64,000 bases of DNA from an uncultured Candidatus Saccharibacteria bacterium (GTDB lineage: Bacteria; Patescibacteriota; Minisyncoccia; Phycocordibacterales; UBA918): positions 207,431 through 271,430 of the forward strand of contig CAZRNZ010000002.1 in assembly GCA_964601615.1 (NCBI GenBank), in the 5' to 3' direction. The notes below the pieces were generated by a model. It saw nothing but the letters and a program-made list of their open reading frames with translations. It was not told the DNA's origin and searched no databases. This document shows, one piece after another, positions 102-40,575 of this stretch. The translations under genes were made by a program, and so were the position numbers. The stretch's first letter is position 1, and each line of letters begins with the position of its first letter.

Positions 102-557
102 ATGGTAAAGAATACGTCAAAAAGAGGTTTCACCCTGATCGAGCTCCTAGTAGTAATCGCTATTATTGGTATCTTGGCTTCAGTAGTACTTGCTTCACTT
201 AACTCCGCTCGTCAGAAGGGGGCTGATGCATCTATTAAGTCAAACCTAAACAACGCTCGTGCTCAAGCTGAGTTGTATTACGATGGTCGTACTCCTAATA
301 GTTACCATGTGAGTGCTAGTGAGAATGTTTGTTCAAGTACTTCAGGTATTGCTAATATGATTACCGGTGCACGAAATGCAAATGGGACAGCAGCTAATGT
401 TGTTTGTGGATCAGAGGCTGGATATTGGGCTGCTAAGGCGTTGCTAGTTTCAAATACTGCACATTGGTATTGTGTTGACTCAAGTGGTCAAGCAAAGACG
501 TATACTAGTACTGCATGGACTTCTGGTGCAGTAACAGCTTGTCCAGCTGGTTCTTAA
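102..557 (+). CDS. Type IV major pilin / pseudopilin with class III signal peptide
   Basis: N-terminus KRGF|TLIELLVVIAIIGILA is a prepilin cleavage/methylation motif (G-1, E+5). 151 aa with C-terminal Cys pair. Own strong terminator follows. Confidence 0.8.
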   Translation: MVKNTSKRGFTLIELLVVIAIIGILASVVLASLNSARQKGADASIKSNLNNARAQAELYYDGRTPNSYHVSASENVCSSTSGIANMITGARNANGTAANVVCGSEAGYWAAKALLVSNTAHWYCVDSSGQAKTYTSTAWTSGAVTACPAGS

Positions 558-578
558 AAATTAAAAAGTCGCACAAAA

Positions 579-605
579 TGCCCCGCAATGCGGGGTGTTT
601 TGTTG
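579..605 (+). terminator. Rho-independent terminator after major pilin
   Basis: CCCCGC-AAT-GCGGGG hairpin followed by a T-run. Confidence 0.7.
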
Positions 606-617
606 TATAATTAACCC

Positions 618-1445
618 ATGCCTGAATGGTACATAATTTCAGTTGTTGCATTGTTTGGATTGATTATCGGTAGTTTTCTCAATGTAGTTATTTATCGACT
701 ACATACAGGACGTTCGCTTAATGATCGGTCGCATTGCTTGTCTTGTGGTACTACTTTAAATTGGTATGAATTGTTTCCTGTAGTTTCTTACTTAACTCTA
801 CTTGGCCGTTGTCGTACTTGTGGTGCATTTATTCCGTATCGTTATGCTTTGGTGGAAATATTAACAGCTGTCACTTTTGTTATTTGTTACTTATTTACCT
901 CTGATATTGTAACTTTTGTTTTGGTAGCGACTCTAATGTCAGTTTTGATTGTGGGATTGGTTTATGATCTCTATCATATGATTATTCCCGATGAAGTTTC
1001 AGGGTGGGCGGCGGCTTTAGCTGTCGCCATAGTTGGTTGGCAAGCTTATCTGTCTAGTGACTGGTTATATGTTGTATTTAATGCACTTTCTGGAGCTGCC
1101 ATTATTTTCTTAGTTTTTTGGAGTTTGTGGTTTTTTTCTGGAGGTAGAGCATTTGGTTTTGGTGATGCAAAACTTTCTGTATCGCTTGGGATGTTAGTTG
1201 GTTTGTCAGGAGTTTTTTCTTTGATGGTATTTTCATTTTGGATAGGAGCAATATTTAGTATCCTACTAATCTTGTTACAAAAAATTATCCGCAAAAGTTC
1301 AGGAAAATTTGGTTGGGGTCATGTTAATATGAAAAGCGAAATACCGTTCGCTCCGTTTATGATTGTTGCGTTCGTAGTTGTTTACTTCTTTAGAGTAGAT
1401 GTAATTCAACTCATCAGTAGTTTTGTAGAAAAAACATGGCTATAG
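618..1445 (+). CDS. pilD: Prepilin peptidase (A24 family)
   Basis: N-terminal CxxC...CxxC zinc motif (CLSCG..CRTCG). Polytopic membrane protein with a GFGDAKL motif carrying the catalytic Asp. Confidence 0.85.
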   Translation: MPEWYIISVVALFGLIIGSFLNVVIYRLHTGRSLNDRSHCLSCGTTLNWYELFPVVSYLTLLGRCRTCGAFIPYRYALVEILTAVTFVICYLFTSDIVTFVLVATLMSVLIVGLVYDLYHMIIPDEVSGWAAALAVAIVGWQAYLSSDWLYVVFNALSGAAIIFLVFWSLWFFSGGRAFGFGDAKLSVSLGMLVGLSGVFSLMVFSFWIGAIFSILLILLQKIIRKSSGKFGWGHVNMKSEIPFAPFMIVAFVVVYFFRVDVIQLISSFVEKTWL

Positions 1446-2020
1446 TCAAAAAAACAGTAATAAATTTTAGACAGAAAGAAAGAAACCTACATAGTGGTTT
1501 TTCTATTTTGGAAGTACTTATTACCGCTGCCATTATTGGAGTAATAACCGGACTTATTACATTGCAATATGGTTCTTTTAATAATCTTATCTTGTTGAAG
1601 AATCAGGCATATCAAGTTGCGCTTGATTTGCGTGAGACACAGACCAGATCACTATCGGTATCTGGTGCAAATGCTGCTTTTAGAAAGCCTTATGGAATTC
1701 ATTTTGAAAGAGATAATCCTTATCAATACATTTTGTTTCTAGACGCTAATCCAGAAAATGGTCTATATGACTTAGGAGAGGAGATAGAGGTAAGGAAACT
1801 TGATTCACGTTTCAGATTGGGTCGTCTTTGTAGTGGTTCTACCGAAAGTTGTACCACAGTTAGTGCCATGTCTGTAGTTTTTCGTCGACCAAACTTTGAT
1901 GCAATTATGAATGCTGGTGCAATAGCTAATGCTGCAGTGGAAATCACTACAATTAACGGAGATGGAGAAGACGTTCGTGCTGTAAATATAAATGCTGCTG
2001 GTCAGATAACTATTGAGTAA
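1436..2020 (+). CDS. Minor pilin / pseudopilin (prepilin-type N-terminus)
   Basis: HSGF|SILEVLITAAIIG motif with E+5. Confidence 0.65.
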   Translation: MAIVKKTVINFRQKERNLHSGFSILEVLITAAIIGVITGLITLQYGSFNNLILLKNQAYQVALDLRETQTRSLSVSGANAAFRKPYGIHFERDNPYQYILFLDANPENGLYDLGEEIEVRKLDSRFRLGRLCSGSTESCTTVSAMSVVFRRPNFDAIMNAGAIANAAVEITTINGDGEDVRAVNINAAGQITIE

Positions 2021-2025
2021 TATTT

Positions 2026-2685
2026 ATGTTGTTTTTTAATAAGAAAAATCTTAGAGGAGGTGAGCAGAAAATTGCAAAGCAATTTTCTGCTCAAAAAAAT
2101 AATCATGGTTTTTCTCTTATTGAACTGTTGGTTTCAATGGCTTTATTTATTGTAGTGCTAACTATGGGTATCGGTGCATTGATGGTCTTGATTAGTTCCA
2201 ATTCAAAAGCTCAAAATATTCAATCGGCAGTAAGTAATATTCAATTTGCTATTGACAGTATGTCTCGTGAGATACGTACAGGAAATGGATATTTTTGTTC
2301 AAGTAGTACTGAAGCAACTGGTGATTACACTCAAGTACAGGATTGTAATAAGGGTACTTATTTATCTATTGTGGAAGGTGGTAAAAGTCTGACTTCAGGA
2401 GGAAGTGCTAATCCTAATAGACGTATAGCATATAGATACAACACTGCTTTAAATGCAATTGAACGAAAGATAGGTAGTGGTTCGTGGGTTAGACTAACTG
2501 ACTCAGCAGTTTCTATTAATACAATGCATTTCAATGTAACTAATTCTGCTGGTAAAGATAGTTCTTCCAATAATTTTCAACCAACTGCAACGATATTTAT
2601 TAATGGGGAAATTATTGGGATAGGGGATACTTCAACCGAATTTACTCTCCAAACCACAGTTACGCAAAGAACTCTAGATTTGTAA
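2026..2685 (+). CDS. Minor pilin / pseudopilin
   Basis: NHGF|SLIELLVSMALF prepilin motif. Confidence 0.65.
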   Translation: MLFFNKKNLRGGEQKIAKQFSAQKNNHGFSLIELLVSMALFIVVLTMGIGALMVLISSNSKAQNIQSAVSNIQFAIDSMSREIRTGNGYFCSSSTEATGDYTQVQDCNKGTYLSIVEGGKSLTSGGSANPNRRIAYRYNTALNAIERKIGSGSWVRLTDSAVSINTMHFNVTNSAGKDSSSNNFQPTATIFINGEIIGIGDTSTEFTLQTTVTQRTLDL

Positions 2686-2690
2686 TATTT

Positions 2691-3266
2691 ATGAAATACA
2701 TCAATAACAAAAAAGGTGGATATTCTTTGGTTGAAGTGCTTATTTCTATTACAGTTCTTTTGATTGCTCTGGTTGGTCCCTTAACTATTGCTTACACTGG
2801 TTTGAAAAGAGCTAATTTCTCCAAGGAACAAACATTTGCAGTTTTTCTAGCGCAAGAAGGAGTTGAATCTGTTGTGAGATTACGAGAAGACTCTGCCCTA
2901 AATGCTTCTTCTTACGGTAATTTGTCTGAGGTTTGGACTACAAACTTCAATGCTGTGAGTAATCGTTGTCAGATTGGAAGTAATAATTATTGCGGAGTGC
3001 GCTTAACTGATGATGGCAGTTTTTCTCAAAATAATATTTATCAGTGCAGCGGCTCTAATTGTTTAATGAGATATAATGATGGCGATAGGGTTCCATACAA
3101 ACAAGGTGTTTCTGGTACAGAAACACAATTCACTCGTCAATTACAAATTACTGTTTCTGGTAATCAGTTTGCCAGAGTAAAATCTATTGTTTCTTGGGGT
3201 CCTGCAACTTCAGATAAGATTGAGCTAGAAACTTATGTCTACAATACTTACTATGAGCCTAATTAA
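2691..3266 (+). CDS. Minor pilin / pseudopilin
   Basis: KGGY|SLVEVLISITVLL prepilin-like motif. Confidence 0.6.
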   Translation: MKYINNKKGGYSLVEVLISITVLLIALVGPLTIAYTGLKRANFSKEQTFAVFLAQEGVESVVRLREDSALNASSYGNLSEVWTTNFNAVSNRCQIGSNNYCGVRLTDDGSFSQNNIYQCSGSNCLMRYNDGDRVPYKQGVSGTETQFTRQLQITVSGNQFARVKSIVSWGPATSDKIELETYVYNTYYEPN

Positions 3267-3834
3267 AAAAACAAAAGAAAAAGGTTTTGCTTTACTAATT
3301 ACCCTTGTGGTAGTGAGTGTGGTTCTGGCAATAGGTTTGTCGTTATTGTTTGTTACTACTAAACAATATTTACTAGCTATTACAGCTACTGAGTCAGAAG
3401 AAGCTTTTCATGCTGCACAGATAGGGCTTGAATGTATGAGATATCATAGAGTGCAGCCTAATACTAGAGATGCTTTTCTTCGTGATAGCACAAATACTCC
3501 ACCCACTGTTTCTTGTGCTGGAGTTACATCAAACATTTTGGACAGTTCACCAATTTTAGGTACTGGAGGGATAGGTGGGGTTTGGATGTATCGTTATCGT
3601 TATAGGTTTGATTTAGGTTCTAGTTGTGTAGATACTAGTTTGTATATTGCTGATTACAGGGATTCTAGTCTGGATTCACCTTATAATATATCAAGTTATA
3701 GTGAGGGATTAAGCCAAATACAATGTATGGCTGGTACCATTTGTACTGTAGTTTTTTCTCGTGGTTATAACAGACCTTGTGGACAGTTGGATTCAATATT
3801 TACTATTCAGCGCGAAATAACTGTCGAATTCTAA
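3235..3834 (+). CDS. GspK/PilX-like pseudopilin (no E+5)
   Basis: EKGF|ALLITLVVV N-terminus lacks Glu+5, as in GspK/PilX-type minor pilins. Confidence 0.55.
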   Translation: MSTILTMSLIKKTKEKGFALLITLVVVSVVLAIGLSLLFVTTKQYLLAITATESEEAFHAAQIGLECMRYHRVQPNTRDAFLRDSTNTPPTVSCAGVTSNILDSSPILGTGGIGGVWMYRYRYRFDLGSSCVDTSLYIADYRDSSLDSPYNISSYSEGLSQIQCMAGTICTVVFSRGYNRPCGQLDSIFTIQREITVEF

Positions 3835-32205: not shown

Positions 32206-32898
32206 TTATCTTTTACGATGACGACGTTCAAATTGTTTAACTTTCTCAAAAATCATGAAGAGTAATATGACCAAGAGCCAGACAATAAGGAATACACTCA
32301 GAATCGCTCCTCCGTTAGCATCCATTATAAAAAGATTAAACAGCGTATGCAATACAATAGCTATGAATAACCCGACTGTTCCAGCAAGTAATTTGATAGT
32401 GTCATTTTTGTAAAATGCAAAAGCGAGAAAAACTCCAACAGCACCTGAAGCTAGGACGTGTAAAAGAGTGGCACCTAAGAATCGGAAGTTACCTGTGATA
32501 ATACTTCCAGAAATATCTCCAGCTACAAGTGGGTTCCACATAAATAAAGCGTTCTCAAGTGCGGCAAAACCAAGAGCAATAGTAATCATATAAATAATGT
32601 AATCGATTGGTTCGTCTACAGCTTTATGCCAGAGAACAATTAAGAGAGCGATAGCATATTTGAGAGTTTCTTCAATAATCACCCAAACAGCCATTAGGGA
32701 TACTCCTGTAAATAATCCTAAAGCCAGCTTTTGTAGCGGAAGAGCCAAGGGGACTACAATCATACCTGCGATAAATGTACGTACTATCAGTCCAGTAGGT
32801 TCTGGTTTTTGTTTATCTTGTCGAAGCCAAAACCAAAGCCAAAAGATTGCGGGCAAAACTCCCCCTAATAAAGCGATAGAAATATTCATCAGTTCCAT
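32206..32898 (-). CDS. PrsW-family intramembrane protease
   Basis: EExxK (IIEETLKY), FxxxxxE (GFAALEN) and HTLFN motifs in a 7-TM protein. Confidence 0.7.
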   Translation of the reverse strand: MELMNISIALLGGVLPAIFWLWFWLRQDKQKPEPTGLIVRTFIAGMIVVPLALPLQKLALGLFTGVSLMAVWVIIEETLKYAIALLIVLWHKAVDEPIDYIIYMITIALGFAALENALFMWNPLVAGDISGSIITGNFRFLGATLLHVLASGAVGVFLAFAFYKNDTIKLLAGTVGLFIAIVLHTLFNLFIMDANGGAILSVFLIVWLLVILLFMIFEKVKQFERRHRKR

Positions 32899-39434: not shown

Positions 39435-39506
39435 GGCCCCATCGTCTAACGGTTAGGACATCAGGTTTTCATCCTGGAAATCGGAGTTCGATTCTCCGTG
39501 GGGTCA
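39435..39506 (+). tRNA. tRNA-Glu (TTC)
   Basis: Acceptor GGCCCCA/TGGGGTC, anticodon loop TTTTCAT, T-loop TTCGATT. Confidence 0.9.
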
Positions 39507-39516
39507 CACTAGATAG

Positions 39517-39550
39517 AAAAGTGCTTTCTTTTGAAAGCACTTTTCTTTAT
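39517..39550 (+). terminator. Rho-independent terminator
   Basis: AAAAGTGCTTTC-TTTT-GAAAGCACTTTT hairpin. Confidence 0.7.
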
Positions 39551-39583
39551 TTTAAATATCTTTGTCAGGTATAATTTTAATAT

Positions 39584-40138
39584 ATGAAAATGAGAAAAAT
39601 AAATATTTTAATTTTAACCTGTGCTTTAGCATTTACTTCTTTGGGTGGATTTGTTTCGCCAAAGTCAGTTGAAGCTTGTTCTTGTGTTGTGCCTGATTAT
39701 TCAGAGGAGGGAGTGCAGAAGCGCTTTAATGAAACGGCTTTAATTTTTGTCGGTACTGTAAAGGATGTATCTGTGAAGTCTGGTGATATTCTTTCTGCTG
39801 GAACAGGGAATATCGAGTTTGAAGTTTCAGCTATCTATAAGGGTGAAACTACAAAGAGAACTTTAGTTCAAGGTGCCCGCGATAGTGCTGCTTGTGGTTG
39901 GATTCCAGAAGTGGGTAGTGAGTATGTGGTTTATGCCTATGAAGAAGATGGGGTATATGGCACTACAAGTTGTAGTCCTAATCATGAGACTCCTCTATCT
40001 GAAAATGAAACCAAGGTTTTTGGTGAAGGAATTGATTTGACGGTGGATGAAACTGTATCTACAGAAGAAGTTGCTTTAAGTTTTTGGCAAAAAATCCAAG
40101 CTTTCTTTGCTGGTATTTTCTCTTCTTTTAATAAATAA
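39584..40138 (+). CDS. Secreted TIMP/NTR-like (OB-fold) protein with N-terminal Cys-Ser-Cys
   Basis: Signal peptide ending VEA|CSC. Mature N-terminus and Cys spacing resemble the TIMP N-domain. Confidence 0.45.
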   Translation: MKMRKINILILTCALAFTSLGGFVSPKSVEACSCVVPDYSEEGVQKRFNETALIFVGTVKDVSVKSGDILSAGTGNIEFEVSAIYKGETTKRTLVQGARDSAACGWIPEVGSEYVVYAYEEDGVYGTTSCSPNHETPLSENETKVFGEGIDLTVDETVSTEEVALSFWQKIQAFFAGIFSSFNK

Positions 40139-40173: not shown

Positions 40174-40208
40174 AAATGCCGCCCAAATTTATTTGGGCGG
40201 CTTTTGTT
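40174..40208. terminator. Bidirectional terminator
   Basis: GCCGCCCAAAT-TT-ATTTGGGCGGC hairpin. Confidence 0.7.
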
Positions 40209-40575
40209 ATATATGAACACCATCAGGATCGATATACTTCAGCCAGATTAGTGGAGTTTCAGGATCAATTTTGATATCGCATTCCGTAAGTGCAGCAATG
40301 AAGTCAATCTTGAGGTCAAACATAACAGCTTTGGTGACCTTTTCCTTCCGTAGTGGGAAACCGATTGTTTCAATCTCAAAACTGATTGGTGGGGCAATTG
40401 CGCTGTTGTGTAGTACGAAAGGAATGAAGTCGATGTCGGTTTCAGGATTGAGTTTGTGTTCATCAATACTCAGGGAGTCGGCCACCAACTTATTCAACTT
40501 AAGACCGAGTGGCTTGATGTGCTCAGAGCTGTGATGGAAAACTTCCGGACGAAAGTTCATAATAATCTTCGGCAT
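40207..40575 (-). CDS. Hypothetical protein, possible MIF/tautomerase-superfamily member (Pro-1)
   Basis: Begins MPKIIMNF, as MIF-like tautomerases begin MPxF; about 120 aa. Weak. Confidence 0.35.
   Translation of the reverse strand: MPKIIMNFRPEVFHHSSEHIKPLGLKLNKLVADSLSIDEHKLNPETDIDFIPFVLHNSAIAPPISFEIETIGFPLRKEKVTKAVMFDLKIDFIAALTECDIKIDPETPLIWLKYIDPDGVHI

Follow-up and report, generated by a model that had tools for sequence, protein, structure and literature searches.

Organization of the locus

The window, i.e., the whole stretch of 64,000 nt that was analyzed, carries a gene encoding a 184-aa precursor related to the tissue inhibitors of metalloproteinases (TIMPs) of animals (Table 1). 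The original prediction had singled out this ORF from its sequence; it is a real stand-alone gene on the + strand, and an NCBI record exists for a protein identical to its product. The gene is bounded upstream by a tRNA-Glu gene and its terminator and downstream by a strong intrinsic terminator, and is therefore a separate monocistronic unit with terminators flanking both of its sides. Reading of the sequence ahead of the ATG did not reveal any Shine-Dalgarno sequence, and a -10 box lies very close to this codon, which makes a leaderless or almost leaderless mRNA likely. The arrangement GGTATAAT-N8-ATG is common to the window gene and to its homologue from Saccharibacteria (locus L002), which suggests that both may be transcribed from a leaderless promoter of the housekeeping type.

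The neighbors of the gene are unrelated housekeeping genes, which encode TsaD, MYG1, a kinase-like protein, a SpoIIAA-like protein, a PCC-domain protein, thioredoxin reductase, FtsZ and FtsA. Its nearest relative belongs to a metagenome-assembled genome (MAG) of Candidatus Saccharibacteria (45% identity), and the same MAG is also the nearest for three further genes of the window (49–65% identity). The window, whose GC content is 37.8%, also holds a type IV pilin cluster and 13 tRNA genes.

Table 1. Coordinates, within the window, of the TIMP-like gene, of the elements of its product and of surrounding features.
Feature	Position	Strand	Remarks
PrsW-family intramembrane protease	32206-32898	-	
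tRNA-Glu gene	39435-39507		5' boundary of the TIMP-like gene
Terminator of the tRNA-Glu gene	39515-39546		
TATAAT -10 box	39570..39575	+	sequence reading, consensus match alone; 8 nt 5' of the ATG
CDS of the 184-aa TIMP-like precursor	39584..40138	+	complete; stop codon within the span
Signal peptide, residues 1-31	39584..39676	+	n-region MKMRK, hydrophobic core, c-region SPKSVEA; predicted cut after Ala31
N-TIMP/NTR-like OB-fold domain, residues 32-150	39677..40033	+	
Cys32-Ser33-Cys34, predicted mature N-terminus	39677..39685	+	aligned with Cys1-Ser2-Cys3 of TIMP-2 (zinc-chelating wedge)
Ser-Ala-Ala-Cys104-Gly-Trp loop	39884..39901	+	equivalent to the TIMP C-D connector (SSAVC72GV in TIMP-2), second segment of the inhibitory ridge; Cys104 predicted partner of Cys32
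Cys130	39971..39973	+	invariant; aligned with Cys101 of TIMP-2 (ITLC101D); predicted partner of Cys34
Amphipathic aromatic-rich helix, residues 160-183	40061..40132	+	EEVALSFWQKIQAFFAGIFSSFN; residues 160-182 in the AlphaFold2 model
Bidirectional intrinsic terminator	40178..40201	.	10-bp stem with 7 GC pairs; ends the monocistronic unit

Discovery and conservation of the family

Searches of Pfam, NCBIfam and PDB with the single sequence did not give any meaningful match, the hits to IL13, CbiN and lipoyl domains being rejected as noise, mostly located over the signal peptide. A word-indexed search for homologues only retrieved the protein itself and one protein from Anaerolineae (34% identity). 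A profile was made from the mature domains of these two proteins, and an exhaustive scan of 1.84 billion representatives, done without any word index, then identified 9,096 representative clusters (50% identity) at E<=1e-3, with 1,983 representatives at E<=1e-10. Most members of the family are 170–210 aa long and their match begins around residue 25–30.

In a 113-member alignment, A31, C32, C34, C104, G105, Y114 and C130 are invariant, S101 is invariant or nearly so, and S33, F55, G57, V59, V81, K86, G87 and A102 are nearly invariant. Apart from the cysteines, the strongest conservation is found in the two segments that match the inhibitory ridge of TIMPs.

The named sources of the family are Bacillaceae, Paenibacillus, Chloroflexota, Micromonosporaceae, Geodermatophilaceae, Rhodococcus, Nonomuraea, a Saccharibacteria MAG and an archaeon MAG. 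In this small named sample, every lineage is generally considered single-membrane. A tblastn search of a phage collection did not detect any homologue, and in a plasmid collection homologues were only found in records from Bacillus, Rhodococcus and Nonomuraea. A Kazal domain fused to one member (P0051) was discarded, as its match is below threshold (E=0.01).

Signal peptide and predicted mature N-terminus

The precursor sequence opens with MKMRKINILILTCALAFTSLGGFVSPKSVEA, directly followed by CSCVVPDYSEEG. It had been proposed that cleavage occurs between PKSVEA and CSCVVPDYSEEG, and the site predicted here likewise leaves Cys32 at the N-terminus. The junction Val-Glu-Ala/Cys-Ser-Cys conforms to the -3/-1 rule (Val at -3, Ala at -1, with Pro at -6) and is preceded by a basic n-region and a hydrophobic h-region. 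The site was called from this rule together with family statistics and not by a trained predictor of the SignalP type.

These statistics concern the 249 family members with sufficient upstream sequence. Position -6 is Pro in 138 of them, position -3 is Ala, Val, Ser, Thr or Gly in 244, position -2 is mainly Tyr, Phe, Ser, His or Gln, and position -1 is Ala in 245. Beyond the cut, Cys is found at +1 and at +3 in all 249 members and Ser at +2 in 240, and no member has any residue between the signal peptide and Cys-x-Cys. As this Ala/Cys-Ser-Cys junction is near-absolute, a free alpha-amine on the first cysteine appears to be selected or, as in TIMPs, needed for function. The junction is the strongest argument for such a requirement, as a purely structural disulfide would not have to lie exactly at the N-terminus. 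Across the family, the pattern is thus that of an N-terminal cysteine which appears to be maintained free by selection.

Homology with animal TIMPs

When the family profile was compared with PDB sequences by hmmsearch, it matched TIMP-2 (E=3.3e-10), TIMP-3 (8e-5) and TIMP-1 (1e-3) and nothing else, the first cysteine of the family aligning with residue 1 of the mature TIMP. The comparison with human TIMP-2 by HHalign gave a probability of 97.7% (E=2.5e-12); over its first 102 residues, the human sequence used is the same as in the PDB alignment. Among 113 members scanned individually, 65 match the Pfam TIMP model (PF00965; best E=8e-11) and four match the NTR module (PF01759). In a set of seven members, the PF00965 scores range from 20.1 to 31.6 bits for a cut-off of 23.1 bits, and six of the seven are above it. 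The similarity to TIMP/NTR profiles that had been anticipated is thus absent for the single sequence, which has no Pfam TIMP match, and present for the family profile, which finds TIMP-2, TIMP-3 and TIMP-1. On this basis, it is nearly certain that the family is homologous to animal TIMPs.

The motifs on which the original prediction was based are all present, i.e., FVGTV (residues 55–59), IYKG (84–87), SAACGW (101–106), GSEYVVYAYEEDG (111–123) and TTSCSP (127–132). They align with VIRAKAV, MFKG, SAVCGV, EYLIAG and ITLCD of TIMP-2; this alignment and the invariant positions of the family show that they are not chance features. At the family level, the motifs shared with vertebrate TIMPs can be written as CSCxxP, VFxGxV in strand A (VIRAKAV in TIMP-2), [WYF]KG, SAxCG, EYL[VI]xA and TxLC.

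The mature window protein has four cysteines, at mature positions 1, 3, 73 and 99. In the HHalign comparison as in the profile alignment, C32, C34, C104 and C130 fall on C1, C3, C72 and C101 of TIMP-2, of which C1/C72 and C3/C101 are the partners in known TIMP disulfides. Exactly four cysteines are found in the domain of 254 out of 258 members. Since the domain has only these four, the third disulfide of N-TIMP is missing.

Fold, C-terminal tail and surface display

An AlphaFold2 model computed from only two sequences had a pLDDT of 52, and the 113-sequence alignment was used instead. The resulting model (pLDDT 89.7) is an OB/NTR barrel, in agreement with the OB-fold that had been predicted. 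The best 19 Foldseek matches in PDB are all TIMP-1, TIMP-2 or TIMP-3, the next ones being the NTR modules of PCOLCE and meteorin, complement C345C and agrin NtA.

Residues 151–184 consist of a linker and an amphipathic helix, without any C-terminal TIMP domain. The window protein is therefore a homologue of the N-TIMP domain and not a canonical two-domain TIMP with 12 cysteines. In the family, the domain is followed by a conserved helix and an LGxG motif and then by a low-complexity linker. The C-terminal elements were classed in 263 members: 214 have a transmembrane helix with a basic tail, eight an LPXTG sorting signal, about 14 an amphipathic aromatic helix (FWxxIxxFFxxIF type) and about 27 a multidomain, truncated or fragmentary C-terminus. 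The prevalence of C-terminal anchors in the family indicates that its members are displayed at the cell surface. The helix of the window protein has a hydrophobic moment of 0.47 and a maximum hydropathy under the transmembrane level. This type of tail is also found in P0119, P0136, P0065 and in the closest relatives of the window protein (P0003, P0007 and P0013). In the window protein, it is probably an in-plane membrane tether that replaces the transmembrane anchor of most members.

Genomic context and promoters

A motif scan did not detect HExxH in any window ORF of at least 80 aa, and the only metalloprotease found in the window is a PrsW-family intramembrane protease encoded 6.7 kb away from the TIMP-like gene. 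The context was extended to related loci; a narrow genome scan gave three loci and a metagenome scan nine. Eleven related loci had usable flanks, and among their sources are MAGs of Anaerolineae and Saccharibacteria, Neobacillus, Ureibacillus, Paenibacillus, an archaeon and several metagenome contigs. According to gene lists or ORF scans, no gene is consistently adjacent in the window and these 11 loci, and no adjoining protease gene was found in any of them. Metal-homeostasis genes are not consistently adjacent in the related loci examined either. A metzincin is encoded within 10 kb of the TIMP-like gene at only one of these loci, L010. There, a secreted 169-aa mini-metzincin (HELGHALGLNHH) lies at a distance of 5 kb. 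In the archaeal MAG, the gene of a YdjM membrane hydrolase is located directly 3' of the TIMP-like gene, and another assembly shows a read-through fusion of both.

As it has no recurrent neighbor, the gene is a candidate for an orphan inhibitor. Its solitary position speaks against a pair devoted to self-protection, such as those of APRin, potempin or Mtz-Tim, and would suit a defense against proteases that are encoded elsewhere or by other organisms.

In 4,113 nt of upstream sequence, four matches were found to a strict motif of the ECF-sigma type, TG[ACT]AAC-N16/17-CGT[CA]. They belong to L007, L009, L011 and L019, homologues that are all of Bacillota type, and each lies 45–53 nt ahead of the start codon. 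As a background, the motif occurs 10 times in 665 kb, these four sites included, so that about 0.04 would be expected in the upstream set. The same place is occupied by a version with one mismatch in L005, L006, L018 and L022. Promoters of the AAC/CGT type are characteristically recognized by ECF sigma factors of the envelope-stress response, e.g., sigM, sigW and sigX of Bacillus. The promoters of these relatives therefore support a role in envelope protection in Bacillota.

Comparison with known inhibitors

Vertebrate TIMP-1 to TIMP-4 (PF00965, MEROPS I35) share with the present family a signal-peptide cut directly ahead of Cys-[Ser/Thr]-Cys and the cysteines equivalent to Cys1-Cys72 and Cys3-Cys101 of TIMP-2. 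However, the window protein is prokaryotic, has only about 24% identity with them and is missed by the Pfam model on its own. The family has two predicted disulfides in the N-domain whereas vertebrate TIMPs have three, as there is no equivalent of Cys13-Cys124/126 (Cys13-Cys126 in TIMP-2). It also lacks the six-cysteine C-terminal domain that completes the 12 cysteines of vertebrate TIMPs and has instead a linker followed by an anchor, an LPXTG signal or an amphipathic helix. Hookworm Ac-TMP/AIP and Ancylostoma ES-2 (PDB 3nsw) are structurally further from the window protein than true TIMPs. Several of the hookworm-type single-domain TIMP/netrin-like proteins lack the N-terminal CXC and are not known to inhibit MMPs, and these proteins are not known to be tethered to a membrane.

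The secreted or surface-anchored inhibitors of bacterial zinc endopeptidases include APRin from Pseudomonas (I38), SMPI from Streptomyces (I36) and potempin A from Tannerella. Like TIMPs, APRin directs its N-terminus into the active site, towards the zinc. In contrast to the present family, these three inhibitors belong to unrelated sequence families, have the gene of their cognate protease adjacent to their own and do not have any disulfide-stapled Cys1-x-Cys3 wedge. Potempin A has an OB-like barrel (PMC9890683).

Tim of Listeria monocytogenes resides in the cell envelope, is predicted to adopt a TIMP-like fold and is tied to metalloprotease biology and cell-wall integrity (PMC8235301). It is a lipoprotein with an LTAC lipobox, and its resemblance to TIMPs is structural only and does not extend to the sequence; its partner must remove about 50 N-terminal residues, and its gene always adjoins that of its metzincin (PMC8235301). 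By contrast, the present family is homologous to TIMPs at the sequence level, has its Ala/Cys-Ser-Cys junction directly at the end of a type I signal peptide and is encoded by solitary genes.

Proposed function and alternative explanations

We consider it plausible, with a probability of roughly 55%, that the window protein is a metalloprotease inhibitor of the TIMP type. Several points speak against it: the window protein alone has no Pfam TIMP match, the third N-TIMP disulfide and the C-terminal TIMP domain are missing, no protease gene is consistently adjacent, and TIMPs act on metzincins whereas the metalloproteases commonly secreted by Bacillota resemble thermolysin. Taken as a whole, its mode of action could be viewed as follows: the precursor would be a Sec substrate that type I signal peptidase cleaves after Ala31, giving a mature protein that starts with Cys-Ser-Cys. 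The Cys32-Cys104 and Cys34-Cys130 disulfides would pin the N-terminal strand and the Ser-Ala-Ala-Cys loop together on the OB/NTR barrel, and strand and loop would jointly form a wedge-shaped ridge as in TIMPs. By analogy with TIMPs, this wedge would enter the active-site cleft of a zinc endopeptidase, where the free alpha-amine and the carbonyl of Cys1 would chelate the catalytic zinc and Ser2 would be directed into S1'. The C-terminal amphipathic helix would hold the inhibitor at the cell surface, as would the transmembrane helix or the LPXTG signal in most relatives. Because the gene is solitary and its product surface-tethered, the most likely role would be the protection of the envelope of a single-membrane cell against extracellular metalloproteases, whether these are foreign or products of distant genes of the same genome.

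This proposal has to be weighed against the possibility that the protein is a surface module of NTR/TIMP fold that binds a ligand (cell wall, host surface or protein) and does not inhibit any protease, the stapled N-terminus being only structural. Many NTR modules are not protease inhibitors, such as complement C345C, PCOLCE, agrin NtA and hookworm ES-2. The lack of a cognate protease in the neighborhood of the window gene and of the related loci would agree with such a function, as would the fusion of some members to non-protease modules (Cu_amine_oxidN1, PD40 propeller and DUF4440). However, the closest structures and sequences are those of inhibitory TIMPs and not those of other NTR modules, and a domain that starts at the signal-peptide cut in each of the 249 members is hard to explain by a purely structural need. 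NTR modules that do not act as inhibitors are for the most part found inside a protein or at its C-terminus, or have no Cys1. A ligand-binding module is thus possible but rather unlikely.

The four invariant cysteines, the location in the cell envelope and the ECF-type promoters of relatives could also be those of an OB-fold protein that binds a metal (Cu(I), Zn or other) or acts in thiol redox, resembling the periplasmic CusF/SilF metallochaperones and using the N-terminal Cys-x-Cys, perhaps together with Cys104 and Cys130. The ligands in CusF and SilF are Met, His and Trp, not Cys. The superposition of the four cysteines on two known TIMP disulfides and the absence of consistently adjacent metal-homeostasis genes make this explanation improbable. 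Still less credence can be given to a lipoprotein in which Cys32 would be modified by diacylglycerol as a lipid anchor, its amine not being free. A cysteine directly following the signal peptide is what a lipoprotein would show, and the TIMP-like Tim of Listeria is one (PMC8235301). However, positions -3 to -1 of the window protein are Val-Glu-Ala, which does not constitute a lipobox because of the charged Glu at -2; lipobox-like sequences are found in only 20 of the 249 members, and most members already have a separate C-terminal anchor. This interpretation was rejected as the lipobox is missing.

Novelty and significance

A literature search, the coverage of which was incomplete, did not find any paper describing a prokaryotic family of TIMP-like proteins. 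The papers on TIMP evolution that were checked do not mention prokaryotes and treat TIMPs as metazoan regulators of the extracellular matrix, and the authors of the 2021 paper on Listeria Tim state that their own literature search did not turn up bacterial TIMP-like proteins (PMC8235301). About half of the family is labeled automatically as TIMP by Pfam, and this name has passed to a few entries of UniRef and JGI. NCBI labels the proteins as hypothetical and NCBIfam does not have any model for them. These prokaryotic, single-domain, surface-tethered TIMP-like proteins constitute a family that is new to the literature searched.

The family keeps exactly those features that make TIMPs inhibitors. 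In a broader scenario, which we regard as doubtful, TIMPs would not be an animal invention. They would go back to an ancient and very large family of single-domain, surface-tethered prokaryotic proteins, with Bacillota, Actinomycetota, Chloroflexota, Saccharibacteria (CPR) and an archaeon as its named sources. This family would act as an envelope-stress-regulated shield against extracellular zinc proteases or control a PrsW-like membrane metalloprotease, and the metazoan TIMP/NTR module would have descended from it. If its members are inhibitors, they would represent a new class of bacterial surface defense or protease control, their small scaffolds with two disulfides could be used in protein engineering, and the origin of the TIMP/NTR module would become an open question again. 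The window itself probably comes from a Saccharibacteria-like epibiont with a small genome, for which a surface protease inhibitor could matter on the host cell.

Genes in the surroundings of the TIMP-like family

The window yielded a single metalloprotease, a PrsW-family intramembrane enzyme, whose gene lies 6.7 kb away from the TIMP-like gene; none of the other related loci carries a PrsW gene near its family member. A secreted mini-metzincin is encoded about 5 kb from the gene of family member P0055 (locus L010) and sits between two paralogous proteins, each anchored at its N-terminus. These paralogues carry the motifs VGISxNVFxGxVI ... FxVxxxYNIKG, similar to those of the TIMP-like family, and both are devoid of Cys-Ser-Cys. 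The mini-metzincin and its flanking paralogues may form a pair like Mtz-Tim of Listeria monocytogenes, in which a metzincin gene adjoins the gene of a TIMP-like lipoprotein.

At an archaeal locus (L012, 6987-8106, from a MAG), the gene lying directly 3' of the TIMP-like gene encodes a YdjM (PF04307) membrane metal-dependent hydrolase, and a different assembly has both genes joined as a single read-through product of 372 aa. The proteins concerned at these sites are P0189, P0264 and P0265.

Type IV pilin clusters, such as the pilin-like one in the window, are typical for CPR and Saccharibacteria epibionts. Read from its sequence, the adjacent ORF (618-1445) may encode a prepilin peptidase. The 122-aa ORF had no match in a Pfam scan; its N-terminal Pro is reminiscent of tautomerase superfamily proteins. 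An HSSEH motif within the ORF is probably due to chance.

Features of the window and of related locus L010
Feature	Location	Strand	Remarks
Type IV pilin-like gene cluster	window 102-3834	+	N-terminal GFTLIELLV / GFSLIELLV motifs
PrsW-family intramembrane metalloprotease gene	window 32206-32898	-	Pfam E=1.6e-24
122-aa ORF	window 40207-40575	-	starts MPKIIMNF
Secreted mini-metzincin, 169 aa	L010 3795-5790, with flanking genes	-	HELGHALGLNHH; weak Pfam Peptidase_M10 match

Domain architectures

Tandem TIMP-like domains occur in P0012 and P0045, the second domain of P0012 being preceded by its own signal-like segment. Other members are fusions of the TIMP-like domain to Cu_amine_oxidN1 (P0078), a PD40 beta-propeller (P0123) or DUF4440 (P0108). 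P0051 ends in a Cys-rich segment (CTREYRPVCG...) with a sub-threshold Kazal match (E=0.01).

Start regions and promoters

The start regions of the window gene (39570-39586) and of its Saccharibacteria homologue at L002 (immediately 5' of 10001) share GGTATAAT, followed 8 nt on by the ATG, and neither gene has a ribosome-binding site upstream of this codon. As judged from these start regions, both mRNAs are probably leaderless.

Among Bacillota-type relatives, the ECF-sigma-type promoter motif TGxAAC-N17-CGTC has strict matches 5' of the family gene at four loci (L007, L009, L011 and L019) and near matches at L005, L006, L018 and L022, these promoters lying 45-53 nt upstream of the start codon. 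Strict motifs number 4 within the 4.1 kb of upstream sequence versus 10 across 665 kb of background, a count that includes the 4 upstream ones. These predicted promoters suggest that the family is under envelope-stress regulation in Bacillota.
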